DNA from: an uncultured Eubacteriales bacterium
GTDB taxonomy: Bacteria; Bacillota; Clostridia; Oscillospirales; CAG-382
Reading direction: 5' to 3'
Assembly: GCA_934479825.1 (NCBI GenBank)
Contig: CAKSOW010000007.1
Span: 19,892-83,891 of the forward strand
DNA length: 64,000 nt
Shown here: positions 5,144 to 62,920 of the stretch, in pieces
How the letters are laid out: every line of letters begins with the position of its first letter
Numbering within the stretch: the first letter of the stretch is position 1
Translations under genes and position numbers: made by a program
The notes under the pieces: model-generated
Database searches by the model: none
What the model saw: the letters and a program-made list of their open reading frames with translations, nothing else
Told to the model about the DNA's origin: nothing

Positions 5144-6124
5144 CTATTTTATTTTTATTTCATTGGTCAGCGGCTTTCCGGCGAAAAACTCATCAAAATT
5201 CTGAATTGTGACGCTCGCAATGTTGTCAAGCGCTTCTTCGGTTAAAAAAGCCTGATGTGACGTGATAAGAACATTCGGACGGCTGACAAGAAGCGCCAGG
5301 GTATCGTCCCGTATGATTTTGTCGGACATGTCCTCATAGAAAAGATTGGCTTCTTCTTCGTATACGTCGAGCGCCGCGCCGCGCAGTTTTCCGGCGGTGA
5401 GCACTTCCAAAAGCGCCTCGCTGTCTACCAGCGCACCGCGTGAGGTGTTGAGCAGAAAGGCGCCCGGTTTCATAAGATCAAGCGCCGCCCGGTCAATGAT
5501 GTGGTAGCTGGATTCCGTAAGGGGGCAGTGCAGGGAAATGACATCGCTTTCGCGCAGCAGCTTTTCAAGCGGCACGTATTCAATGCCGCTTCCCCCGGCC
5601 GGATACGGGTCGTAGGCGATAACTTTCATGCCAAGCCCTTTGCACAGGTCGATAAAGGTGCGGCCGATCTTTCCCGTTCCGATAATGCCGGCGGTCTTGC
5701 CATACAGGTCGATACCGGTCAGCCCATTGATGTTGAAATTGAAGTCGCGCGTGCGGATATAGGCGCGGTAAATGCGGCGGTTGAGCGCCAAAAGAAGTGC
5801 AAGCGCGTGTTCGGCTACGGCGTGCGGCGAATAGGCCGGTACGCGGACGACCGCTAGTTTATCTTTGGCGGCTGTGATATCCACATTGCTGAAACCGGCA
5901 CAGCGCATGGCAAGAATCTTTACACCGCGCTCAACCATGCGGTCGATTGCCATTTTGTTTATGTTGGAATTGACAAAGGCGCAAACGCCGTCAAATCCCT
6001 CGGTGATCTTGGCGGTGTGATGGTTGAGCTTTTCTTCAAAATAGGTGATCTCATAGTTTTTTCCGTATTGGTCAAAATACGTTTTATCATACGGTTTTGT
6101 ATCAAAAAATGCGATTTTTTTCAT
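5144..6124 (-). CDS. ldhA: D-isomer-specific 2-hydroxyacid dehydrogenase (D-lactate dehydrogenase-like)
   Basis: MKKIAFFDTKPYDKTYFDQ..., NAD-binding motif GIIGTGKIGR, and the catalytic-region pattern typical of D-LDH family proteins of about 330 aa. Confidence 0.8.
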   Translation of the reverse strand: MKKIAFFDTKPYDKTYFDQYGKNYEITYFEEKLNHHTAKITEGFDGVCAFVNSNINKMAIDRMVERGVKILAMRCAGFSNVDITAAKDKLAVVRVPAYSPHAVAEHALALLLALNRRIYRAYIRTRDFNFNINGLTGIDLYGKTAGIIGTGKIGRTFIDLCKGLGMKVIAYDPYPAGGSGIEYVPLEKLLRESDVISLHCPLTESSYHIIDRAALDLMKPGAFLLNTSRGALVDSEALLEVLTAGKLRGAALDVYEEEANLFYEDMSDKIIRDDTLALLVSRPNVLITSHQAFLTEEALDNIASVTIQNFDEFFAGKPLTNEIKIK

Positions 6125-15128: not shown

Positions 15129-15241
15129 ATAATGTACGGATATTATATCGGGCCGTCGTAGCGGCCAGTGCGGCTCGTTTGGAATAGTCAGGCGTGGCAT
15201 TTATGCCGGAAAAAATACAAAAACCGAAAGGAAACAGGCAA

Positions 15242-16681
15242 ATGAACGAAAAAGATATATGGAATCTTGTGCTTACCGGATTAAAGGAAAATCATAATTT
15301 GTCAGAGATGACCGTGAATCTTTGGTTTGACAGCATGTCCATGGAAAAGCTGACGCCGTCTACCGCCTATTTCCGCACGGATAACGATTTGAAAAAGCAA
15401 ATTATTGAATCCAAGTATGCCGATATTCTGAAAGAAGAACTGAAACACGTTTTGGGATTTGATGTGGAAATCGTTCTTGTGTCTACCGAGCATGGGTCGT
15501 TCGAGAGCCAGTTGAATGCCTTGCAGAACCGCTTGCGCTCCGAGCAGTTGGAGGAAGTCACCGAAAAACTCGATGCCGAGGATGCTGTCGGAATGCGTCA
15601 GACGGCGGCGCACTTCGGAAAGGATTCATCGGGAATCATGGTCTCCTCATCGCTTTTGCCGGAATATTCGCCGGAATACACTTTTGAAAACTTCGTCGTT
15701 GGACGTTCCAACGACCTTGCCTATAAAATGGCGTGGTCGGTTGCCAATCAACCGGCCGTTGTGGCAAATCCCTTATATCTGTACGGTTCGCCGGGACTCG
15801 GAAAAACGCATTTGCTGTATGCCATTACGCACTTGTTGAATCAGAATCATCCGGAATTCAAGATTATTTACGCCAAAGGCGAAGATTTCACCAATGAGCT
15901 GATTGAATCGCTGTCCAATAAAACGCCGATTCTGTTCCGTGAAAAATACCGCAGTGCCGATGTGCTTCTCATCGACGATATCCAGTTTATTGCCGGTAAG
16001 GAAACCATACAGGAAGAATTTTTCCATACCTATGAGGCGCTCTTTGAGGCAGGCAAGCAGATCATCGTTACCTCCGACCGTTTGCCCAAGGATATCAAAA
16101 CCCTTGCCAGCCGTCTGCTTTCGCGCTTTGAACACGGAATCATCGTCGATATCCAACCGCCGGACTTGGAGCTTCGCGTGGCGATCTTCAAACGCAAGGC
16201 GGAGGCGCTTGGCATGAATGTGCCGAACGACGTTTTAATGTACTTAGGCGAAAACATCAAGGACAATATCCGTCAGATCGAGGGAGCGCTCAAAAAAATG
16301 CGTGCGCTTGCCTTTATCCAAGGCACGGATATCTGCATGGAGCACGCCAAAACCGCCGTTGCCGATATTTTAACTGCCAAGGCTTCGGCTGTCACTCCGG
16401 AAAAGATCCTGACGTTTGTGTCCCAGAAATACGGCATTCCGACCGAGGACATCATCGGAAAACGGAAAACCGACGCCATTGCTTCGGCAAGACAAGTGGC
16501 CATTTACTTACTCCGCGAGTTAACCGATATGTCCTTTGCCAACATCGGAAAGGTCTTTAACCGCGATCATTCCACGGTGGTCGCGTCGGTCAACAAGGTC
16601 AAGGACCGCATGAAAGAAGATTCCAGTTTTGAAGCGCAGATCGACGATATGATGAAAGATGTGCGCGCTGCCGGCTATTAA
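15242..16681 (+). CDS. dnaA: chromosomal replication initiator protein DnaA
   Basis: Walker A GSPGLGKTHLL, AAA+ sensor motifs, and a domain IV helix-turn-helix (RQVAIYLLRELTDMSFANIGKVFNRDHSTVVAS). Start set at MNEKDIWN (ATG at 15242) after AAAGGAAACAGG. Confidence 0.95.
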   Translation: MNEKDIWNLVLTGLKENHNLSEMTVNLWFDSMSMEKLTPSTAYFRTDNDLKKQIIESKYADILKEELKHVLGFDVEIVLVSTEHGSFESQLNALQNRLRSEQLEEVTEKLDAEDAVGMRQTAAHFGKDSSGIMVSSSLLPEYSPEYTFENFVVGRSNDLAYKMAWSVANQPAVVANPLYLYGSPGLGKTHLLYAITHLLNQNHPEFKIIYAKGEDFTNELIESLSNKTPILFREKYRSADVLLIDDIQFIAGKETIQEEFFHTYEALFEAGKQIIVTSDRLPKDIKTLASRLLSRFEHGIIVDIQPPDLELRVAIFKRKAEALGMNVPNDVLMYLGENIKDNIRQIEGALKKMRALAFIQGTDICMEHAKTAVADILTAKASAVTPEKILTFVSQKYGIPTEDIIGKRKTDAIASARQVAIYLLRELTDMSFANIGKVFNRDHSTVVASVNKVKDRMKEDSSFEAQIDDMMKDVRAAGY

Positions 16682-21841: not shown

Positions 21842-21876
21842 CAGACCGCAGATTTCTTTTGGAAATCTGCGGTCTG
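21842..21876 (+). terminator. terminator-like hairpin after nadE (no strong T-tract)
   Basis: 15-bp stem CAGACCGCAGATTTC / GAAATCTGCGGTCTG. Its 3' half is re-used as the boundary of the tandem repeat that follows. Confidence 0.55.
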
Positions 21877-22284
21877 TCTGTTGCAAAAGTCTCCGTGACA
21901 TATCGGGCGAAGCCCGATTTAAATTTAAATTTGAAAAAATCGGGGACATGCGCCACGATTTTTTCTCAGATAGATTCGCGAGTGTCAAAAAGCGGAGACT
22001 TTTTGGCATGAGGCGCGAGCGTACGAATCTGGTTCGTGTCGTAAAACGAAGTTTTGCGACACGCGCAAAGAAATCCGCGGTCTGTCTGTTGCAAAAGTCT
22101 CTGTGACATATCGGGCGAAGCCCGATTAAAATACAAATTTGAAAAAATCGGGGACATGTGCCACGATTTTTTCTCGGATAGATTCGCGAGTGTCAAAAAG
22201 CAGAGGCTTTTTGGCATGAGGCGTGAGCGTACGGATCTGGTTCGTGTCGTAAAACGAAATTTTGCGACACGCGCAAAGAAATCC
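21869..22284 (+). repeat. two tandem copies (208 bp each) of a structured intergenic repeat, family 1
   Basis: Unit 1 spans 21869-22076 and unit 2 spans 22077-22284; both start GCGGTCTGTCTGTTGCAAAAGTC. The two units are near-identical by direct comparison, differing by scattered substitutions. Further copies lie at 39659-39850 (inverted) and 59037-59232. Confidence 0.9.
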
Positions 22285-22294
22285 GCGGTTTTAC

Positions 22295-28333: not shown

Positions 28334-28384
28334 GAAAACATAGGCGCGGCGCAAAACAAAGTTTTACGCCGCGCTTTGTACCGG

Positions 28385-38827: not shown

Positions 38828-39658
38828 ATGAAAAAGAAAATTGTGCTTTTGCTTGCTGCCCTTTTGGTTGCCACTGCCGCTTTTGGCTGTGCCAAGAAAG
38901 ATAACGGAGACGGCGATCCCAAAAACGACATTGTTACGCCGTCCGAGGACGACAAGAACAACGAGACCGGAGACGATCAAAAAGACGAGACAGAGGACGG
39001 CAATTCTGCCGCAGAGGATAACAAAGACAACAACGATGAAAACAAAGACGAGAACAAAGGGGAAAACAACGGCGAAATTGTAAAACCGGATGACAGCAAA
39101 AAAGACGACGCAAAGCCGAGTGATAAACCCTCAAAGCCGGATAACACCGAACAGCCCGAGGTTCCCGAAGTCCCGGCACCCGATTCAGGTCTTACGGATA
39201 ACGGCAACACCGGAACATCGGTCGATCTGTCCGGAAAAACCGCTTCGGACATCATTTCGATGATCTATGAGAAAAAGCCGGTCGATTTGGCGCTTGACAC
39301 CACTTCTGTTGACCTTGCCGACAAAGATGCCGTCAAATCCTATGCCGGCCTTACGAGCGCAGACGGCATTAAGGAAATTGCCGTTTCCGAGCCGATGATG
39401 AGTTCGCAGGCGTATTCGTTAGTGGTAGTGCGCGTATCGGACAGCGCCAACGCCGCGTCGGTGGCAAAATCCATGAAAGACGGCATTAACCCGAGAAAAT
39501 GGGTCTGCGTGGAGGCGGACGATATCAAAGCCGCCACCTATGGCGATTTGGTCGTATTCTTCATGGTGGATTCGGACTTTTCCGATACGGTAACAGCTTC
39601 CGACATCATGAATGCGTTCAAATCGATCTGCGGCGGTACGCTTGATTCCGAAATATAA
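38828..39658 (+). CDS. lipoprotein with a D/N/K-rich linker and a DUF4358-like C-terminal domain
   Basis: Lipobox AAFGC followed by a low-complexity acidic linker. The C-terminal region (EIAVSEPMMSSQAYSLVVVRV...GDLVVFFMV) resembles DUF4358. Confidence 0.55.
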   Translation: MKKKIVLLLAALLVATAAFGCAKKDNGDGDPKNDIVTPSEDDKNNETGDDQKDETEDGNSAAEDNKDNNDENKDENKGENNGEIVKPDDSKKDDAKPSDKPSKPDNTEQPEVPEVPAPDSGLTDNGNTGTSVDLSGKTASDIISMIYEKKPVDLALDTTSVDLADKDAVKSYAGLTSADGIKEIAVSEPMMSSQAYSLVVVRVSDSANAASVAKSMKDGINPRKWVCVEADDIKAATYGDLVVFFMVDSDFSDTVTASDIMNAFKSICGGTLDSEI

Positions 39659-39850
39659 CGTGTCGCAAAACTTGGTTTTACGCCACGAGCCAGATTCGTG
39701 CGCTCGCGCCTCATGCCAAAAAAGCTGACGCTTTTCGACACGCGCGAATCTATCGGAGAAAAAATCGTGGCGCGTGTCCCCGATTTTTTCAGAATTCAAT
39801 TTGAATCGGGCTTCGCCCAAAAAAGCCGAAAGACTTTTTTAACAGACTTA
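39659..39850 (-). repeat. family 1 structured repeat, inverted copy
   Basis: Starts one base after the stop codon of the 38828 gene. Its reverse complement aligns with 21869-22076 and 59037-59232 (core GGGCGAAGCCCGATT...AATCGGGGAC...GATAGATTCGCG...TTTTGGCATGAGGCG...TTTTGCGACACG). Confidence 0.85.
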
Positions 39851-39890
39851 GACTGTCAGTCGCTCCCTAAGGCGGTCTGACAGTCTTTTT
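39850..39890 (+). terminator. rho-independent terminator
   Basis: Stem AGACTGTCAG / CTGACAGTCT followed by TTTTT. Confidence 0.7.
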
Positions 39891-47344: not shown

Positions 47345-47495
47345 AACCATATTTTCAGGGCAGGGAGCATTTCCCTACCGGCGGTAAAGTCCGAGGGCGG
47401 AGCGGCGTTTCCTATCTTTTACGCACCCGCAGATCCGGTAAGTTTCCAAAAACAATTCCGGAACCGACAGTATAGTCTGGATAAAGAGAAGATGT
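47345..47495 (+). promoter_or_regulatory. FMN riboswitch (RFN element)
   Basis: Conserved RFN core strings CAGGGCAGGG...CCCTACCGGCGGTAA...CCGACAGTATAGTCTGGATAAAGAGAAGA, located upstream of a RibU-like gene. Confidence 0.85.
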
Positions 47496-47591
47496 GGTAA
47501 GCGTTATTTAAGCAGTTTTGCCGGATAACAGCTTATCTTGTTATGTCCTGAGACGAATTGTCCCGGGAATTTTTTGTTTTGAGGTGTTATT

Positions 47592-48161
47592 ATGCAAAAA
47601 AGCTTAAAAAAGACGGCTTTTGTCGGCGTTTTGTCGGCTATGTCGTTTGTCTTGTTTCTGTTCCCGAAATTTCCGATTCTGGCGGCGTTCCCATGGCTCG
47701 ATCTTGATCTCTCAGACGTGCCGGGCTTGTTTGCCTCTGTTATGATTTCGCCGCTTGCCGGACTTCTTGTAGCGCTGATCAAAAATGTGCTCCATTTGGC
47801 TGTTACATCCACAGCCATGATTGGCGAACTGTCCAATTTCCTGATCAACGGTTCCTTCGTTTTCGCAGTTGGGCTCTTGTATCACTATCTGTTTAAAGCG
47901 TCCGGAAAAAGCAGTATACTCGCGTTTTCTCTCGTTCTGGGCTCGGCTGTACAGATCCTTGCCGCGGTTCTTGTCAATTACTTCCTTATGATTCCGATGT
48001 ATTCGGCATTCGTCAATTTCTCCGAGCTCGGCGGCGCAGAAAAATATATTCTTGCCGGCGTAATTCCGTTTAACCTTATTAAGGATATTCTTGTTTCGGC
48101 GATATTCTTTGCCTTGTTCCGTCTGCTTTACCGGAAATTTCATGGTTATTTACATAAATAG
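47592..48161 (+). CDS. ribU: riboflavin ECF transporter S component
   Basis: Similar to B. subtilis RibU/YpaA as recalled (LDLSDVPG vs IDFSDVPA; AGVIPFNLIKDIL vs AGILPFNMIKGIV). The upstream FMN riboswitch supports the call. Confidence 0.75.
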   Translation: MQKSLKKTAFVGVLSAMSFVLFLFPKFPILAAFPWLDLDLSDVPGLFASVMISPLAGLLVALIKNVLHLAVTSTAMIGELSNFLINGSFVFAVGLLYHYLFKASGKSSILAFSLVLGSAVQILAAVLVNYFLMIPMYSAFVNFSELGGAEKYILAGVIPFNLIKDILVSAIFFALFRLLYRKFHGYLHK

Positions 48162-53925: not shown

Positions 53926-53996
53926 TTTCGGGCAAAAACAAAACATATAAACCGAAACGAAAACGTTTCAAACAAAGAAAGGAATTGGTTATCAAC

Positions 53997-56501
53997 ATGA
54001 AGAAAAGACTTCTCAGCTTAGCGCTGGCCGCCGTTATGACGGTTTCGTCGCTTGCGCTTACCGCCTGCAATCCGAGTTCCGACGTGAGCGGAAAACCCGG
54101 AAAAGGCGCACTCACCACAAGAGATCTCACCAATATCTATAAGGCGGATTCCGTCAGCACGGTGGGGACTATCTTTGAGAATCTTCAAATCAATCAGGTC
54201 TACAAAATGAACGACGGTAAGTTGCTTGTCTGCGGCTATACCACCGAAGACTACGAAGACAAGTATTACATCACCGATATTGATTTCAAGAACGCCTCCG
54301 AAATGACTATTAAAAAGGCAGAGGGGCAGAATTCCGGAACCTACATTCAGAACGTGACGGTCAATCCGACCGACGGCTCTATCTGGTATGTCAAGAACGT
54401 CTACTCGTATTCGGACAACACGGACGGCGATATTTCCGATACAATGGAAAAATATGCGATGCCGACCGTTATCGGCGGTGCAGACGGAGCAGCCGTAGCT
54501 ATCGGTTCTGATATAGCCATTGATTCCGGCTTTGCCGTCGACGCTACCGAGGATGCCAACGCTTACTACCTTGTCAAGGTGGACGCAGAGGGCAACATCG
54601 TTTCGGAAACATATATTTCCGCTGACCTTACGGTGACCGACGAAAGCGGTAACAGCTATCAATCCTCTCCCAGCAACCTGGTGCTTGCAGGAAACAAGCT
54701 TCTTTTCTGCGTTGATACGGTTGTTAAGGTCTATAATGCAGACACTGCTACCAAAGAAAATGAATATAAGATCACCGATCAGTACATCGACAACCTGTAT
54801 GTCGGCGCTTCCGGTACGGTTTATTATGTGCTCTGGGGCGAAAACGGCCAAGAGCTTTATAAGTTTGACCCCGAAACCGGCAAGAGCGATAAGACTGAAT
54901 TTACCGGCCTTGACAATCTTTATAGCTACCAGTTCAACGCCGGAACAAACGGGTATGAGTTTATTTTGACGAATGAAGACAGCATTTTGGGTTACAATCC
55001 GGGCGATGCAGCTCCTACCGAAATTTGCAGTTACACGAATTCCGACCTGGATATGACATCCGGAAATGTCAGTGCTCCGATCTTCTTGGAGGATGGCCGT
55101 ATTCTTCTCTGTTTCTATGACTATGATACCAGCCAGAACGATGTTCTTCTTCTCTCCAAGGTCGATCCGTCTATGGTCAAGGAAAAGTATATCATTACGC
55201 TTGGCGCACGCTATATGGACTATCAGATCAAGAGAGCGCTTTTGAAGTTCAACCGCACCAGCGACGAGTATAAGGTTGTGTTCAAGGACTATTCCAAGTA
55301 CGACAATGAATCCAACAATTATAACGGTGCTTACGAAGCTCTTGATAAGGATATCCTTTCCAAGAACGATGCGCCCGATATTATTGTTGTCGATTCCTAT
55401 GGCATGGACTACAAGAGCTACATTTCCAAGGGCATTTTTGCCGACCTTGAAAAGTATATGGATGCAGACGAAACTTTCAACAAGGACGATTATCTGGCAA
55501 ACGTATTTGAAGCAGAAAAGATCAACGGTCACTTGTACACCATCTCCCCGGCTGTAAGCTTTATGACGCTTGCCGGCAAGAAATCCATTTTTGGCGACAG
55601 AACACATTGGAATATGAAAGAATTCCTTGAAATGCACCGTTCGCTTGGTGAGGGCGAGCAGATGCTTCCCGAATCGGCCAGAGACAGCTACGGTTCTGTT
55701 ATGTTGATGATTGCCGAAAACGAATTTATCGACGATAACGGCAACTGCACGTTTGACAGCGAAGAATTCAAGGATATTTTGGCTTATCTGAAAGATCTCC
55801 CGGCCGATTACACGGCATATCAGGAAAAATGGCAGAACAACGACAACTATTGGCAGGAGCAGGAGCTTTCGTACAGCAAGGGCACGACCAAGCTTTATAA
55901 CGCTTATATCTACAACTTCGATATGATTCCGGAGTTGGAGAACTATATGGGCGAAGAAGTGACGCTGATTGGTTATCCGACGGCCACCGAAGGCGCCCAG
56001 GGCGTTCTGATCCAGCCGGCTACCGAACTTGCTATCAACGCCAATTCCAAGGTAACAGCCGGTTGTTGGGAAGTTATCAAGTATTTGCTTTCCGATGAGT
56101 ACCAGAACCAGTTCTCCGGCGACCGGAGCGGAAACAGGGGATACTACGGTTCGTATCTGTTCCCGATCAAAAAGAGCATTATTGAGAAGAAGAAACAGAA
56201 CGATATTCTTCCGCAATACTACACGGACTATGACGAAAACGGCAACGAGATTCAGGTAGAACGTCCGCGTTATACGTGGATCGGCGATACGAAAGTCGAA
56301 AAGCGTAAGAGTACCGAGGAAGATGTGGCGCGTCTGTATGACATATTTACGAACGCAAACTTCTTTGTACGCGAAAACAAAGAAATTACCGATATCGTTA
56401 TGAACGAAGCTCAGCCGTATTTTGATAATCAGAAGTCGGTAGACGAAGTAGTCGGCATTATCAACAGCCGTGTTCGTCTGTATGTCAACCAACAGAGATA
56501 A
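53997..56501 (+). CDS. large lipoprotein: N-terminal beta-rich domain fused to an extracellular solute-binding (family 1-like) domain
   Basis: Lipobox LALTAC. The C-terminal ~450 aa resemble sugar-binding proteins (DIIVVDSYGMDYKSYISKGIFADLEKYM...). It is the last gene of the operon that carries the two permeases. Confidence 0.65.
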   Translation: MKKRLLSLALAAVMTVSSLALTACNPSSDVSGKPGKGALTTRDLTNIYKADSVSTVGTIFENLQINQVYKMNDGKLLVCGYTTEDYEDKYYITDIDFKNASEMTIKKAEGQNSGTYIQNVTVNPTDGSIWYVKNVYSYSDNTDGDISDTMEKYAMPTVIGGADGAAVAIGSDIAIDSGFAVDATEDANAYYLVKVDAEGNIVSETYISADLTVTDESGNSYQSSPSNLVLAGNKLLFCVDTVVKVYNADTATKENEYKITDQYIDNLYVGASGTVYYVLWGENGQELYKFDPETGKSDKTEFTGLDNLYSYQFNAGTNGYEFILTNEDSILGYNPGDAAPTEICSYTNSDLDMTSGNVSAPIFLEDGRILLCFYDYDTSQNDVLLLSKVDPSMVKEKYIITLGARYMDYQIKRALLKFNRTSDEYKVVFKDYSKYDNESNNYNGAYEALDKDILSKNDAPDIIVVDSYGMDYKSYISKGIFADLEKYMDADETFNKDDYLANVFEAEKINGHLYTISPAVSFMTLAGKKSIFGDRTHWNMKEFLEMHRSLGEGEQMLPESARDSYGSVMLMIAENEFIDDNGNCTFDSEEFKDILAYLKDLPADYTAYQEKWQNNDNYWQEQELSYSKGTTKLYNAYIYNFDMIPELENYMGEEVTLIGYPTATEGAQGVLIQPATELAINANSKVTAGCWEVIKYLLSDEYQNQFSGDRSGNRGYYGSYLFPIKKSIIEKKKQNDILPQYYTDYDENGNEIQVERPRYTWIGDTKVEKRKSTEEDVARLYDIFTNANFFVRENKEITDIVMNEAQPYFDNQKSVDEVVGIINSRVRLYVNQQR

Positions 56502-56588
56502 ATAAGTAATTTTCAAGAAAAATGCGGCTTTTTTTAAAAGAAATGCCGCGTGAAAAAGAATGCAAGGGCTGCATGCCCTTGCATTCTT

Positions 56589-56627
56589 GCCGCCCGATGG
56601 CTTGATCATCGGGCGGCTTTTTCTTTT
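56589..56627 (+). terminator. rho-independent terminator (second of two consecutive hairpins)
   Basis: Stem GCCGCCCGATG / CATCGGGCGGC followed by TTTTTCTTTT. It is preceded by the hairpin AGAATGCAAGGGC / GCCCTTGCATTCT. Confidence 0.8.
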
Positions 56628-57445
56628 CCGGAAAAGCCCGGATAGGGGCTTTTCGTTTCGCGAAAAGCATATAAGAGACGGTTTTTGTCTTACTTTTTCG
56701 CTTGTACGAAAAAGTAACCAAAAAGTACACCAGAGGTCTGCTGACCTCTGGGCTCTGGGGAACGGTTCAAAATTCCGAGCGTGGAGTTTATTTGTTAAAC
56801 CGCAAGCCGTGTGACTATCAAGGAATTTTACGGAAATTTGCAACCTTGTGCCATATAGCTCGGAGTATTTTGAACCGGCGCGAGACGGCGGTTTTACTGT
56901 GTAAGGATTTATGATTTTTTATGAAAAGGCATACTCTGATTTGGGTAGACAGCAGGTTATGTGTTTCATGAAAAGTGAGAGTTTGGTGGGAGGTTGTTTT
57001 TGAGAGGACAGAAAGCTATTATTTAGGAAAACGGAAAGTTTTGTAAGAGTGCAAAAATCCGATTTTCTACATATATACAAACCGCAGGTTTACTTCTACT
57101 CAACCCACCCCAACTTTCCATTTCCACCGCACCAAATATAACGTACAGTTTCCCTTTTAAACGATCGCTTGCGGCGGCAAGACCGCACCGCAACTTCGAT
57201 TTTCCACAAAACCCGATTCTGCGTTTGTACTACACTTCCGTTTCGCACCGGTTCAAAGCCTGAAAGCTGTTTTAGAGACAAAAAACTACAATTTTTATCA
57301 AAGGCATGCCTGTGTAGAGCTTTGAACCGCTCTCCGGGAGTCCAGAGGGCTATTTTGCAGCGGCGCTTCGCCGCCCCTCGGTCTGCTTTTGGTTACTTTT
57401 CGCAGAGGCGAAAAGTAACAGAAAAACGTCCTTTGGGAACTTGGG
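56625..57445. repeat. family 2 structured non-coding locus, copy B (reverse-complement homologue of 33255-34330)
   Basis: Manual alignment of the reverse complement with copy A. Matching blocks: 44 nt with 43 identical, 33 nt with 32 identical, and 68 nt with 60 identical. The order of architectural modules is the same in both copies. Confidence 0.85.
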
Positions 57446-58895: not shown

Positions 58896-59036
58896 GGGAG
58901 AACCTCCTTGCAGTGTGTTGATTTTGAGTGCGTTTTGGTATCTTTATTCTATCATAACCACAGGATTTTGCCATGTGTTTTTTACCGAAAAATATGTGTT
59001 TTTCGGTAAAATAAAACCGCTCCGGATTTTCGGAAC

Positions 59037-59232
59037 GGTTCTGTCTGTGACAAAAGTCATAGGACTGTTTCGGGCAAAGCCCGATTCAAATTGAATTTTG
59101 AAAAAATCGGGGACATGTGCCACGATTTTTTCCCCGATAGATTCGCGAGTGTCGAAAAGCGTAAGCTTTTTGGCATGAGGCGCGAGCGCACGAATCTGTT
59201 GCGCGTCGCAAAATGAAATTTTGCGACACGCG
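59037..59232 (+). repeat. family 1 structured repeat, fourth copy
   Basis: Aligns with 21869-22076 over the whole core. Flanked on both sides by similar hairpins (AAAACCGCTCCGGATTTTCGGAACGGTT on the left and AAAACCGCTCCGATTTCTCGGAGCGGTTTT on the right). Confidence 0.85.
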
Positions 59233-59233
59233 T

Positions 59234-59264
59234 AAAAACCGCTCCGATTTCTCGGAGCGGTTTT
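59234..59264 (-). terminator. rho-independent terminator of the surface-protein operon
   Basis: Stem CCGCTCCGA / TCGGAGCGG with a T-tract on the minus strand. Confidence 0.7.
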
Positions 59265-59272
59265 GCTGTATT

Positions 59273-59398
59273 TTATTCCTCTAACCATTCGCCGTCAATA
59301 TCGACGTCGTCTTGGGGATCTTCGCCGCTGCTCATGAGCAGGTCAGCGGTCAAAAGTTCAATATCCATTTCAGGCGAAATATAATTCTTCTTACGCAT
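59273..59398 (-). CDS. possible 41-aa acidic peptide, translationally coupled to the surface-protein gene
   Basis: Own translation: MRKKNYISPEMDIELLTADLLMSSGEDPQDDVDIDGEWLEE*. The ATG lies inside ...GCCAATGCGTAA (the stop of the upstream gene), with GGAGGA 7 nt upstream. It ends 9 nt before the terminator. Confidence 0.35.
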   Translation of the reverse strand: MRKKNYISPEMDIELLTADLLMSSGEDPQDDVDIDGEWLEE

Positions 59399-62300
59399 TG
59401 GCGCTTCCTCCGTTTACAATATTATTGATATAGTCTTGTTCCTCTTCCGACATGCTTGAAAATGCATCCGAGTTCTGTAACTCTTGTGCAACCTCAAACA
59501 TGCTTCTTGCATAAGGTGAACTGTAATAATAATTGTTTCCGATTTTGATGTAAGCGCGTACAGCGAGGGAAGTGTTGTTATTCTTTATATTGTAGACAAC
59601 GCAGGTGATACCTTCGCTTTCGCCGAATTTGATATCACTGCCTAACGAACCGCCGCCGTTATCGTAAACGATGTCCGTGCCGTCGTTTTTGTTGTAAGCC
59701 ACACCGTAGACGTATTTCGTTCCATCCGGCGTAGTACCTTTGGCTTGCGGACCGGACGGGCCGAAAACGAGGTTGTTCATGGTTTCATCTTTCGCGGTGA
59801 GAGCGGTCTTGTTGCCGACAATGAATCCGATTTCTTCGGCTTGTGCAAGATTTTTTGCGGCAAGGTTCACTTTTGCGGCAAAACGGATACCGGTATTTCC
59901 GGTAATGCGGATAGAATTCTTTTCGATCATGGTCGGAACCGTGATCGAATCCTTTTTCCAGATCGCGTAAAGATTGTTTTCGGAGGTGTTTGTAATGTCA
60001 ATCGAGGCGACCGTGGTCGTGGCATCCGGAGAAGTACCCCAACCGAGGAACACATACCCCTCACGGGCAGGAATGTCGCCGGTCAGACGGTAATCGACGC
60101 CAACAGCCGCTTTGGTGTCGGTTGCAAAAGCCGTACCCGAATTGTCGTTCATGTAATAGGTCACAGTTTTATCACCGGTGCGATAGAACCGGATGTAATC
60201 GACAAGAGACGTGTCACCGATGCTGTATGCCTTGCGGAGTGCATCAAAGTGAAGGGTGTTTTTATTCGTCATGCTTGCGTAATCGAATTTAGACTCGTAT
60301 TCTTTAAGGGAATCGGCATATTTTCCGCCAAATGTGGCTAAGCTTTTATTGTCGGTGCTCTTCAATTCCATGTACGGAAGTTTTTTGTTAAAACGTACAC
60401 GTGCTTTGGCTCGGTTGAAGTCGGCAGAAAGCCCCAAATCAGATACATCTAAGACATAGTAGTGATAGTTGCCCGTCATGTTTACCAAAGCTGTCACGGT
60501 CATAATTCCGTTTGAAAAAGAGGGCTGGGAGTTTTGATGGGTATATGTGAGTTTATCGCTGTTATCAAACTCAAATCCGACGGAAGACGGACGTGTATCC
60601 AACCAGCAGGCATACAGATTTACATCGGCATTTCCAATGGTGATAGCGTCGCTCGGATCGAGCAGATTTGTTTCGGCTTTGGCATCGCTCTCACTTGTTG
60701 CCCAGCCGCGGAATACATAGCCGGTACGTGTCGGAACTTTTCCGGTCAAACGATACCCCACACCGACAGCAGCCTTGTCATCCATATCAAACGTTTCCAT
60801 GGTACCGTCATTCATATAGTATGTGACGGTTTTGTCGCCGGTGCGATAGAAACGAACGTAGTCAATGTTTGCACTTTCCAAGGCGTTGCTTTCATCTGCT
60901 ACTTTTTTTGGTACACGTAAAGCGTCAACAGCAATGATATTTAGCGTACTTGTAAGATCCGGATTCCAGCTTTGTTTAAACTCATGTAATTCGTCTGTGT
61001 ACGGCTTTGCGACACTTTCGTTGTTGCCGCTTTTTGTCAGCCAGAATACACCGGACGAGTGATTGCCAAGAGCAGTATTATTAACATTCAACACAGCCAT
61101 GGCGGCCTGGTTGGTGTTGGAACTTAACCGAGCGCGTAAGAAAATTCGGTTGTAGTCTCCGTTTAAGCCATCGGAATACTTGGCGGCAATATTGATTTTA
61201 AAGCGGTTATATACTCGGTCGGGAAATACTGCGGTAGGAGTATATACACCCAAACCGTTTTGCAGAGTAAGTTTTGAATAGGCGAGGTTTCTGTCTTGAT
61301 AGAGTGTGTCTAAAATTTCGTCTTCATCGTCGCCGCCGAATTCCACGCTTTTCATGGACAGAGCTGTGTAATCATAATCCCAAACCGCATAAAGTGTAAT
61401 GGCATCTGTGGTTTCCGGTGTAATTTCCGTAATCAGATCTTCGTCTTTGTATGCGGCAAGAGCAATTTGCGTTTTCGACCAACCTTTAAAAACAAAATAT
61501 TTGGCGGTCGGTTTGACAGCTGAAAGAGCATTGGACTCGTTCAGAACAGCGTATCCATCCGCAGGCATGCCGCTCACTGCGTCGGCAAGAACCGGCTTAT
61601 TGGCGTCGTAAACGACCTTGGCAAGCTTGCTTTCGTCGATGTTAGCGTAAAGTGTAATGTCGGCACGATTCAAAGCCACGGAAGTTACGGGTTCGCCGCC
61701 TTGTTTGGTTGCCCAGCCGTTTAACGCATCGCCATAAGGATTATAGTTCGGCGTAAAGTTTTCAAGGAAATTACCTTTGTCGTCGATCAGCGTATATTCC
61801 GTTTTGAGAACAGAACTTCCGTCCGGCGTGCAGTAGGTGATTTTGTAGTAGGGGACAAACATAAGGTTGTCCAGATAAACAGAATTGCCTCTATCTAATT
61901 GAAAACCGGCAATCGTTACATCCTGGGAAGAGTAAACAGCAAAAGTTCTTCTGACCGGACTTCCAGTACTGGAACCAACGTCAATGACTTTGGCGTTGCC
62001 GCCGGACGTGGCTAACCACTTTATGCCGGTAGGGTTTGTGTAAAGAAAGTTTTCCTTTTGGTCACTTAGCGTTTTGTGGTTAAAACCGATAAACCAAAAG
62101 TTGGAGTTGCCTATTGTTTGTACATCAACAGAAACATACAACGGACGCTCAGCATCTAAATTGAACTTCCACTGAAAATAAGGATATGTACCGGATACTG
62201 CATTTACTTGTAAAGCTTTGCTGGAATTATTGGTGATAATGGTTGCAGAATCTACATTGGAGATACTTATAATACTGTTGGTTAACAAAACTTGTTTGTT

Positions 62301-62550
62301 CTCAACCCATTTTTCCCCTTCTTCGTAGCTCTCAAACGTCTCCGCCTCCGTTGTCCCGGTAAGAATATTAGTACCAGGGGGGGGGTATGATTCCTGTATC
62401 AGCGGTCAGATCCGCCGTTTCTTGTGCCGGTTCGGCAACCGGGGTGGTCTCCATGCCGTTTTCAACCGGTTCAAGCACCGGAACGGCAAACGCCGTCATG
62501 CAAAGCAAAACTGCAAGCAGAACGATGGCAAGGGTATTGCGCTTTTTCAT
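59391..62550 (-). pseudogene. secreted Listeria-Bacteroides-repeat surface protein (about 1050 aa) interrupted by a frameshift at a homopolymer; a phase-variable gene or an assembly error
   Basis: The 62368-62550 ORF encodes only a Sec signal peptide plus linker (MKKRNTLAIVLLAVLLCMTAFA/VP...) and stops just after the C9 tract. The 965-aa body ORF (59391-62288) is open back to the tract in the frame reached by removing one C. The body contains YVF(R/L/K)GW...LYA(C/I/V)W repeats. Confidence 0.75.
62377..62385. repeat. G9 (coding-strand C9) homopolymeric tract
   Basis: Counted directly: G at 62377-62385. It encodes PPP in the signal-peptide frame. Confidence 0.95.
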
Positions 62551-62642
62551 GAGAAAACTCCTTTCAAATTTATATGTTTTTAAGCGCCGGCTGATAGAAA
62601 CAACCTGAGCGGCGTTTCACAAAAGAAACAATTTCTTTTTTA

Positions 62643-62671
62643 ATTATAAATTTTTCTATGCGCGAAATCAA
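62643..62671 (-). promoter_or_regulatory. sigma-A-type promoter of the surface-protein gene (TTGATT-17 nt-TATAAT on the minus strand)
   Basis: The reverse complement of 62643-62671 reads TTGATTTCGCGCATAGAAAAATTTATAAT. It lies about 90 nt upstream of the ATG at 62550, in an AT-rich spacer. Confidence 0.5.
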
Positions 62672-62861
62672 TTGCAAATCAAAGAAAAAAGTTTGCATAT
62701 AATGACTTTCTTGCTTTTGGTAAAAGGAGAGGCAAAATGTTTGCATAAAGCATATTTATTTTCGCTTATTAGTAATTTATGGTTGAATTATAGCATGGAT
62801 TATGAATTTATATGTTGACAATTTATTTCTGAATATAAATTAAATAGTTAAATATGCACAT

Positions 62862-62898
62862 AAAAAAGAGCTTTCCCCAAGGGAAAGCTCTTTTTTTA
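62862..62898 (-). terminator. bidirectional rho-independent terminator after icd
   Basis: Stem AGAGCTTTCCC / GGGAAAGCTCT flanked by A6 and T7 tracts. Confidence 0.85.
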
Positions 62899-62920
62899 TA
62901 GTCATATACGGTAAGTTGTT

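Follow-up and report, generated by a model that had tools for sequence, protein, structure and literature searches.

How a short non-coding repeat came to lie, at one locus after another, directly beside the hairpin of an intrinsic terminator is the question raised by a 64,000-nucleotide stretch of contig CAKSOW010000007.1 from an uncultured Eubacteriales bacterium (in the following called the window). The window contains four copies of an element of about 193 bp, and the fourth of them is enclosed between two hairpins of nearly the same sequence. Comparison of the copies with related loci demonstrated that the element is inserted at terminators and that its insertion can duplicate the complete palindrome of the target. 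[quoted passage not shown]

Insertion at terminator palindromes

A profile built from the four copies gave exactly four full matches when the 64-kb window was searched with nhmmer (E 1e-65 to 1e-70; 21871-22065, 22079-22273 and 59038-59232 on the plus strand, 39659-39850 on the minus strand), in agreement with the four dispersed copies listed by the first-pass annotation of this DNA. Apart from self-palindromic echoes no other match above E 1e-6 was obtained in the window. The pairwise identity of the four copies is 82-94%. Copies 1 and 2 are arranged head to tail as a 208-bp tandem and are mutually closest relatives (94% identical), and copies at different sites share 80-87% identity without any near-identical pair. 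Overall we documented about 15 distinct insertion sites, at least 11 of them outside the window in related gut metagenome contigs and metagenome-assembled genomes (MAGs; these contigs and loci are numbered with the prefix L). These counts are lower bounds, because assemblies frequently break within the element.

An alignment of 13 copies (A3) was the basis for the boundaries and helices. The copies have common boundaries, 5' (T)CAGACTGTYGCAAAAGTC ... GTTTTGCGACACGCTC 3', and range from 190 to 197 bp. At 11 of 13 loci the 5' end of the element touches a hairpin, and at 8 of 12 the 3' end does so. At six of the twelve two-sided loci a direct duplication exactly abuts both ends of the element. 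It is perfect and 23, 24 and 25 bp long at L003, L005 and L001b, the last of which adjoins tRNA-Pro, measures 26 bp with one mismatch at L008 and 30 bp at L004, and has decayed at copy 4 (28 bp). The local alignment scores of these duplications (18.5-25) compare with a maximum of 11 among 110 mismatched flank pairs. Each duplication consists of a GC-rich stem-loop with paired A and T tracts, i.e. a bidirectional intrinsic terminator, and its length equals that of the local palindrome within 1-2 nt. The target palindromes have no common sequence, although all of them are terminator-like and located at the 3' ends of genes or tRNAs; two sites adjoin tRNA genes. The bases beside the 5' end of the element vary between loci, and the flanks contain no conserved short motif. 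The earlier suggestion of a long target duplication or a preference for terminators, which had been made for copy 4, is supported, and the long duplication recurs at six of the twelve two-sided loci.

At the copy 4 locus the upstream palindrome (59013-59040, AAAACCGCTCCGGATTTTCGGAACGGTT) is decayed and without a T-tract on the plus strand. It is followed by the element itself (59041-59233, plus strand; left terminal inverted repeat at 59041-59058), which was delimited by nhmmer, alignment and folding, and by the downstream palindrome (59235-59264, AAAACCGCTCCGATTTCTCGGAGCGGTTTT), an intact bidirectional intrinsic terminator. The near-duplicate hairpins claimed for both sides of this copy are thus present (59013-59040 and 59235-59262). 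A promoter-like site (TTGTCA, 16 nt, GAAAAT) on the minus strand at 59026-59053 points towards the fucosidase gene; its -35 box is located within the left terminal repeat of copy 4 and its -10 box within the upstream hairpin copy. An outward TTGCAA -35 box is known from the ends of IS6-family elements (PMC6807381).

The tandem of copies 1 and 2 shows the full hairpin upstream only. This perfect 15/16-bp palindrome, CAGACCGCAGATTTC-TTTT-GGAAATCTGCGGTCTG, extends from 21842 to 21876, and its final 3 nt are at the same time the initial 3 nt of copy 1 (21874-22066, plus strand, CTGTCTGTTGCAAAAG ... GTTTTGCGACACGCGC; nhmmer E 7e-70, confirmed by the alignments). Between the two copies only the A-run and the right arm of the hairpin are left (AAAGAAATCCGCGGT, 22067-22081, plus strand), a remnant which forms a direct repeat of 12-15 nt with the upstream hairpin arm. 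Copy 2 (22082-22274, plus strand; nhmmer and alignment) is followed by a second half-hairpin remnant, again AAAGAAATCCGCGGT, and then by TTTAC, the original T-tract (22275-22289, plus strand). Unequal exchange between long flanking repeats is the probable origin of this tandem, as its 94% identity suggests. Copy 3 (39656-39848, minus strand; nhmmer) has a palindrome at its 5' end (39851-39885, GACTGTCAG...CTGACAGTC, with TTTTT next on the plus strand) and no duplicated hairpin at its 3' side (39656). Its last three bases, TTA on the minus strand, provide the TAA stop codon (39656-39658) of a plus-strand DUF4358-like gene (38828-39658), so that the insertion may have truncated or re-terminated this gene; the gene calls of other strains (L027) contain the same 276-aa product. 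At L002 (7197-7286) a copy reduced to about 110 nt by an internal deletion has kept the left end and, of the helices described below, H1, H2 and part of H5. H3 and H4 are gone, and a terminator hairpin is present at the 5' side only.

The duplicated target copies have diverged by about 5.6% (9 mismatches in about 160 nt). At the copy 1 locus and at L004 the two hairpin copies differ by changes which keep each of them a perfect palindrome. The upstream hairpin of copy 1 (21842-21876) contains CGCAG/CTGCG where the downstream remnants read CCGCGG, and it has gained CAGAC, which pairs with the first bases of the element, GTCTG. The two L004 hairpins (5580-5616 and 5806-5840) read AGCCGG...CCGGCT and ATCCGG...CCGGAT. 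These changes look like quasi-palindrome template-switch correction.

A comparison of empty with filled sites, which had been proposed together with the first description of the repeat, revealed two empty sites in sister species, each with one hairpin. In the sister contigs L022 and L023 (NadE 90% identical, same convergent neighbour) the intergenic region comprises 48 bp with one bidirectional terminator hairpin (L022 11966-12013, the orthologue of the copy 1 palindrome). The corresponding region of the window comprises 467 bp, and deletion of 21874-22289 restores a collinear alignment with the sister. In sister contig L020 (fucosidase 93% identical) only one hairpin, ACGCTCCGGAAA...TTTCCGGAGCGT, comes after the conserved left flank ...ATATGTGTTTTTCGGTAAAAT; at the equivalent point the window contains hairpin, copy 4 and hairpin. 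No copy of the element was present in about 59 kb of sister-species DNA. The single hairpin of the empty sites demonstrates that the element arrived by insertion at a terminator and that the second hairpin was made at insertion.

The right flank of the second site is non-orthologous, because the window species has an extra surface-protein gene. In L020 (9785-10000) the isocitrate dehydrogenase gene is located directly upstream of the fucosidase gene. Between these genes the window contains, beside copy 4 and within 59277-62920, an additional 965-aa surface protein with Listeria-Bacteroides repeats and a 41-aa open reading frame (ORF).

The ORF maps and flanks also confirmed that the orientation of the element is independent of the neighbouring genes. 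At six loci (copies 1/2, L003, L004, L007, L008 and L001b) the element follows a gene or tRNA in sense orientation, and at five (copies 3 and 4, L005, L001a and L026) it is antisense. Such a random orientation is expected for a symmetric DNA target. Replication-strand bias is uninformative, since the GC skew is uniform across the window and the copies are located on both strands.

The folded core

The element has no coding capacity, as the first-pass annotation had stated: stops and frameshifts vary between copies and the ATG is not conserved. For the peptide EKIGDMRHDFF.DRFAS a coding reading was rejected. Most substitutions are non-synonymous, three copies have lost the ATG, and the frame of the 3' half differs; the peptide seems conserved only because the underlying nucleotide block is free of insertions and deletions.

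Using RNAalifold and explicit pair counting on A3 we obtained five helices with compensatory changes. H1 (ATCGGGC-GAA-GCCCGAT; 59070-59075/59079-59084 in copy 4) is followed by a T-rich run that scores terminator-like. H2 is formed by GAAAAAATCGGGG...CCACGATTTTTTC (59100-59111/59120-59132), and the long-range helix H3, TAGATTCG/CGAATCTG (59138-59145/59191-59198), closes a junction. H4, GTGTCRAAAAGC-loop-GCTTTTTGGCAT (59146-59157/59168-59179), carries the loop that had been described as variable. H5 is the terminal 13-bp hairpin (59202-59214/59218-59230); the right terminal repeat makes up the right arm of this hairpin, and the left arm represents a third copy of this repeat in direct orientation. 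Of all pair cells 96.6% are paired, compared to 31-46% in slid controls, and 11 double-changed pairs were counted against 2.2 +/- 1.3 after shuffling (none of 500 shuffles reached 11). Examples are the change from A-U/U-A to U-A/C-G in H2 of L025 and L026, that from GGGG/CCAC to GCAG/CTGC in L001a, and the replacement of C-G by U-A at the pair which closes the loop of H5. With compensatory changes well above the shuffled controls, the earlier claim of a folded element holds, and three of the four helices named there are among the five: CGGGC-GAA-GCCCG, the A/T stem with the variable loop and the 13-bp terminal hairpin. The fourth, CCCGATT paired with AATCGGGG, shows no covariation and is broken by every variant. 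The AATCGGGG segment pairs downstream instead, in GAAAAAATCGGGG...CCACGATTTTTTC, and L025, L026 and L001a contain compensatory changes for this pairing. H2 and H3 had both been missed.

The loop of the A/T stem does differ among copies, as noted before, but it is simply variable. Inspection by eye of copies 1, 3, 4, L003, L005, L008 and L025 showed no relation between the variable loops and the target hairpin of the same copy, and the idea of a guide RNA was rejected. Complementarity between the 5' region and the H4 loop exists in copies 1 and 2 only.

The fold is specific to one strand. On the aligned (top) strand G.T (G.U in RNA) is fixed at five positions and occurs in 54 cells, compared to 10 A.C cells (equivalent to G.T of the bottom strand), and in 12 of 12 copies the top strand gave the more stable fold, whether RNA or DNA parameters were used. 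These properties would suit movement as single-stranded DNA, in which an HUH-type or other strand-specific enzyme recognises the top-strand hairpins and inserts the element beside terminator hairpins at replication forks, with a target finding akin to that of IS200/IS605 and derivatives, integron cassettes and group IIC introns. The targets are structures rather than sequences, and H1 and H5 contain GNA triloops closed by C-G (GCGAAGC, C-GAA-G, C-GCA-G and C-GGA-G), which are unusually stable DNA mini-hairpins. We nevertheless give this explanation only a small chance. Known transposons of this kind leave the target unduplicated and enter on the 3' side of a conserved tetra- or pentanucleotide, whereas the duplications found here measure 23-30 bp and a short motif is absent; in addition, the orientation is unbiased relative to genes (6 versus 5), copies occur on both strands of a window with uniform GC skew, and no HUH gene was found. 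A palindrome element derived from IS200/IS605 was rejected for the long duplications and the differing bases of the 5' flanks.

In ten copies the per-site variability amounts to 0.056 for paired and 0.24 for unpaired columns and reaches 0.42 in the first 33 nt, and unpaired blocks such as GAGGCGCGAGCG are invariant. The variability of the stems equals the divergence of the duplicated targets, which serves as a neutral clock since insertion, and suggests that the stems have decayed roughly neutrally after insertion. The variable parts probably differed already among the source elements. The constraint on the helices would thus act on mobility and not on a host function.

This bears on the explanation that the element is a functional structured RNA under host selection, i.e. 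a module of the 3' untranslated region (UTR), a terminator module or a small RNA, whose spread would be secondary and to which the doubled hairpins would belong as terminators. The equal divergence of stems and neutral duplicated flanks speaks against such a selection, in spite of the compensatory changes in the helices, the many G.U pairs on one strand and the invariant unpaired blocks such as GAGGCGCGAGCG. At the six sense loci the element lies directly 3' of a gene or tRNA with a hairpin that no longer has its T-tract, which makes read-through into the element plausible, and H1 with its U-rich run scores as an intrinsic terminator; the other five loci, however, are antisense to the flanking transcription, and a consistent internal promoter was not predicted in the element. 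At gathering thresholds the only Rfam hit in the window was an FMN riboswitch elsewhere, and even at E 10 no credible family appeared (best sub-threshold hit of the element 26.5 bits, threshold 55); the Rfam check suggested earlier therefore yielded no described RNA family. The element is furthermore absent from the sister species at two orthologous sites. The copy 4 orthologue in L016 (510-702) differs by 8 changes in 195 nt, several of them at otherwise invariant core positions, compared to 4 changes in 455 nt of flank, although this point is weak because L016 is a single low-coverage contig. The same copy has a 2-nt deletion, and three of its changes match variants of other copies; decay, gene conversion or an assembly chimera are possible reasons. 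Taking both sides into account, we regard a host-selected RNA as rather improbable.

Proposed mode of movement

The element has imperfect terminal inverted repeats (TIRs), 5' (T)CAGACTGTTGCAAAAG ... CTTTTGCGACACGCTC 3', with the core TGTYGCAAAA inverted at both ends; the 5' sequence CTGTTGCAAAAG and the CTTTTGCGACAG-like 3' end agree at about 10 of 13 positions. IS6/IS26 elements have a 14-bp TIR with the consensus GGTTCTGTTGCAAA, in which G1, G2 and G7 do not vary, and generate 8-bp duplications (PMC6807381). The left end of the element, CAGACTGTTGCAAAAG, matches positions 5-14 of this consensus including G7, G10 and the TTGCAA hexamer, and the right end matches 9 of 14 positions. The start of L001a, GGTTTGTTGCAAAAAGTTT, can be compared with IS1216, GGTTCTGTTGCAAAGTTT; the ends of IS26 and IS1216 were verified on annotated plasmids. 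Membership in the IS6/IS26 family is nevertheless not supported, because the terminal GG is missing in most copies, the duplications are 23-30 bp long or absent, and such a transposase was not found in about 260 kb of related DNA. An 8-bp duplication was not detected at the loci without a long repeat. As judged from the sequence, the IS6-like ends may provide a lead to a related DNA-binding specificity, perhaps that of the 'long' clostridial group, in which a GG is seldom found at the start of the ends.

According to the preferred reading, a MITE-like DNA moved in trans, a transposase supplied from elsewhere, presumably of the DDE type, would move or would have moved the element. The target would be chosen by DNA shape and not by sequence, namely as the GC-rich palindrome of an intrinsic terminator. 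Two strand transfers would take place at the two feet of this palindrome, most simply if it were extruded as a cruciform, which unites the feet, and gap repair would then copy everything between the joints and produce a target duplication of palindrome length (23 to 30 or more bp). As an outcome the terminator would be doubled with its upstream copy parted from its T-tract, and the long direct repeats could subsequently promote tandem amplification, as for copies 1 and 2, or the loss of one repeat. The helices would serve transposition and not the host. The duplication tracks the length of the palindrome, whereas an enzyme with fixed stagger would give a constant length, which suggests that the structure itself unites both sites.

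A precedent for this type of target is known. IS1272, a member of the IS1182 family, targets terminator hairpins of unrelated sequence, and both IS1272 and TnSha1 of the same family insert in both orientations with deletion of the stem-loop; the published cruciform model predicts doubling of the entire stem-loop for one pair of feet and its deletion for the other (PMC5678879; PMC4923244). The mixture of duplicated and duplication-free insertions observed here fits the IS1272 cruciform scheme.

Several observations weigh against the movement of a MITE-like DNA by such a mechanism. Four of the twelve two-sided loci (copy 3, L001a, L025 and L026) have no duplication, and L025 is located between two different hairpins. 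A single line of evidence, the match between duplication and palindrome length at six loci, points to the cruciform step. Pfam searches detected no transposase or integrase domain among the genes of the window, tblastn with the IS26 and IS1216 transposases found no IS6-type transposase in about 260 kb of related DNA, and an autonomous insertion sequence (IS) with the same ends was found neither in the window nor in these related loci. Concerning the ends, the terminal GG, which is invariant in IS6, is absent; G1 and G2 are replaced by CA in most copies, and the GG of copies 1, 2 and 4 belongs to the target hairpin. The left terminal repeat is situated in the most variable part of the element, and the duplications of IS6-family elements are 8 bp long (PMC6807381). 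Copies 3 and 4 are fixed, i.e. they are present in every contig of the window species that reaches them (including L009 for copy 3), and there is no sign of recent activity, since near-identical copies at different sites are lacking (80-87% identity). All copies are old.

A more far-reaching version of the shape-directed insertion is unlikely in our view. In this version the secondary structure and not the enzyme would set the stagger, insertion would occur at the four-way junction of the terminator cruciform, and the folded core, as RNA or single-stranded DNA, would be an obligatory cofactor that recruits or guides the enzyme. If true, this would be a self-structured, terminator-homing element without a described counterpart.

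Insertion by a Cas1-like integrase (casposase), with strand transfers on either side of a palindromic repeat and its subsequent duplication, is very improbable. Duplication of the whole palindrome (23-33 bp) is what Cas1-Cas2 does to the CRISPR repeat, casposons have terminal inverted repeats, 14-15-bp duplications and a preference for sites beside tRNA genes, and two sites of the element adjoin tRNA genes. However, the ruler of Cas1 corresponds to a fixed repeat length, whereas the length of the duplications varies (23 to 30 or more bp); the terminal repeats are instead similar to IS6-type ends, and no cas1 or casposon gene was seen at any examined locus. That the element is not mobile at all, and was distributed by segmental duplication or recombination between terminator regions with flanking repeats from palindrome-mediated template switching, is hardly credible in view of about 15 sites in unrelated gene contexts with sharp common boundaries, flanking duplications that differ in sequence from site to site, clean empty sites and the lack of flanking homology beyond the element, even if a tandem duplication in situ did give rise to copies 1 and 2 and palindrome-correcting changes occurred (the compensatory L004 copies, and the copy 1 hairpin which incorporated bases of the element).

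Related systems, distribution and neighbouring features

With its small size, lack of a transposase gene, terminal inverted repeats, target duplication and presence or absence at orthologous sites the element has the properties of a MITE, although its target duplication is atypical for a MITE in being long and variable. This family has not been described before and belongs in kind to the MITE-like structured repeats. Unusual is the combination of a palindrome-length duplication at terminators with a strongly constrained, strand-specific core of five hairpins and IS6-like termini.

The closest parallel in target choice is the IS1272/IS1182 family including TnSha1 of Staphylococcus, with inverted repeats of terminators chosen by structure, insertion at the stem base and both orientations. 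IS1272, however, is an autonomous IS of 1.9 kb with a 548-aa transposase, which deletes or replaces the hairpin without duplication, whereas the element is non-coding, 193 bp long and usually duplicates the palindrome. The likeness concerns the choice of target, and an IS1182-type transposase was not found in related DNA. With the TIR consensus of IS6/IS26, a family whose MITEs include MITEBth2 and MITEHarch3 (ISfinder), the left end of the element shares positions 5-14; the IS6 family, in contrast to the element with its terminator hairpins and duplications of 23-30 bp, produces 8-bp duplications and has no known preference for hairpins.

The repeats Correia/NEMIS, bcr1, RUP, ERIC and SPRITE are likewise small (100-200 bp), non-coding and intergenic with stable stem-loops. 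Compensatory changes have been described for bcr1, and SPRITE is terminator-like and located near convergent gene ends (PMC3184786). Their target duplications are short and of fixed length (TA; 5 bp for bcr1) or absent, and duplication of a whole palindrome is unreported for them. Searches of Rfam and of plasmid and phage collections showed no sequence similarity between them and the element. An assignment to REP/BIME, single imperfect palindromes of 20-40 nt with hundreds of copies, was rejected, since the unit described here has 193 bp, five helices and defined ends.

CRISPR Cas1-Cas2 and casposons resemble the element in strand transfers that flank a palindromic repeat and in its duplication by repair, and they have an off-target preference for cruciform-forming sequences. 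Their duplication is set by a ruler; that of the element, a defined 193-bp DNA with its own terminal repeats, is set by the palindrome. Class C group II introns home just downstream of intrinsic-terminator stem-loops, where they recognise the hairpin. They are ribozyme retroelements of more than 600 nt which insert in one orientation without target duplication, and the element differs in each of these features; group II intron domains were not detected in it by Rfam.

If the proposed mode of movement is correct, the element would be natural evidence for a bacterial transposition that reads the shape of DNA and whose footprint is the target palindrome. Such a footprint was modelled for the IS1182 family, and we found no documented case. 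Similar elements can be searched for by a simple signature, a repeat between two copies of one terminator. For the evolution of terminators and 3' UTRs the insertions are relevant as they double a terminator, strip one copy of its T-tract and add about 190 nt of structured sequence, and the long flanking repeats leave them prone to tandem amplification or precise loss.

A very abundant genomic family, as suggested by four copies in 64 kb, is not supported so far: the public data reached contained about 15 distinct sites, a lower bound. A 22-base degenerate core pattern matched a single genome in a set of 185,579 species representatives; this uncultured Eubacteriales MAG came from the Hadza gut and has two diverged copies at locus L001. 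The same pattern matched eight contigs in a metagenome collection. Two of these contigs represent loci of the window itself in other strains (L006, 99.4%; L009, 97.8%), and four originate from one sample with equal coverage and are probably further sites of one genome. A six-frame peptide search against 5.8 billion proteins revealed only two spurious ORFs, which yielded the new copies L025 and L026. Plasmid and phage collections (blastn, distant mode) contained no similar DNA, and pattern scans of viral contigs (IMG/VR) gave no matches or chance matches in unrelated AT-rich DNA. The distribution of the family appears to be limited to one narrow lineage of uncultured Clostridia from the gut. 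For a Clostridia lineage that is common in the human gut, an uncharacterised repeat at which short-read assemblies break is thereby flagged.

The window is ordinary chromosome with genes for NAD synthase, Mfd, DnaA, EF-G, EF-Tu, ribosomal proteins, a fucosidase and, preceded by an FMN riboswitch, an ECF riboflavin transporter. The closest named relative of the fucosidase is a MAG protein labelled Candidatus Flemingibacterium sp. (89% identity); other homologues are labelled Eubacteriales, Oscillospiraceae or Clostridia. The FMN riboswitch (47347-47497, plus strand; Rfam RF00050, 76.5 bits) is located directly upstream of the gene at 47592-48161, which encodes the S component of the ECF-type riboflavin transporter, an ordinary arrangement. 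A full-length DnaA homologue with N-terminal, ATPase and C-terminal domains is encoded at 15194-16681. Despite its presence the GC skew is positive across the whole window, without a visible switch of the origin type.

Downstream of a SipL/LysM gene the palindrome GCGGCGCAAAAC-AAA-GTTTTACGCCGC (28344-28373) resembles H5 (CGTGTCGCAAAAY-GAA-GTTTTGCGACACG) and obtained a weak nhmmer score on each strand (E 0.07-0.18). Either a terminator that is similar by chance or an isolated pair of terminal repeats could account for it. Two ORFs of 838 and 941 aa (53985-56501, plus strand; 54018-56843, minus strand) overlap almost completely on opposite strands. Neither of them has a Pfam match, and the 837-aa version is called in the sister contig L021.

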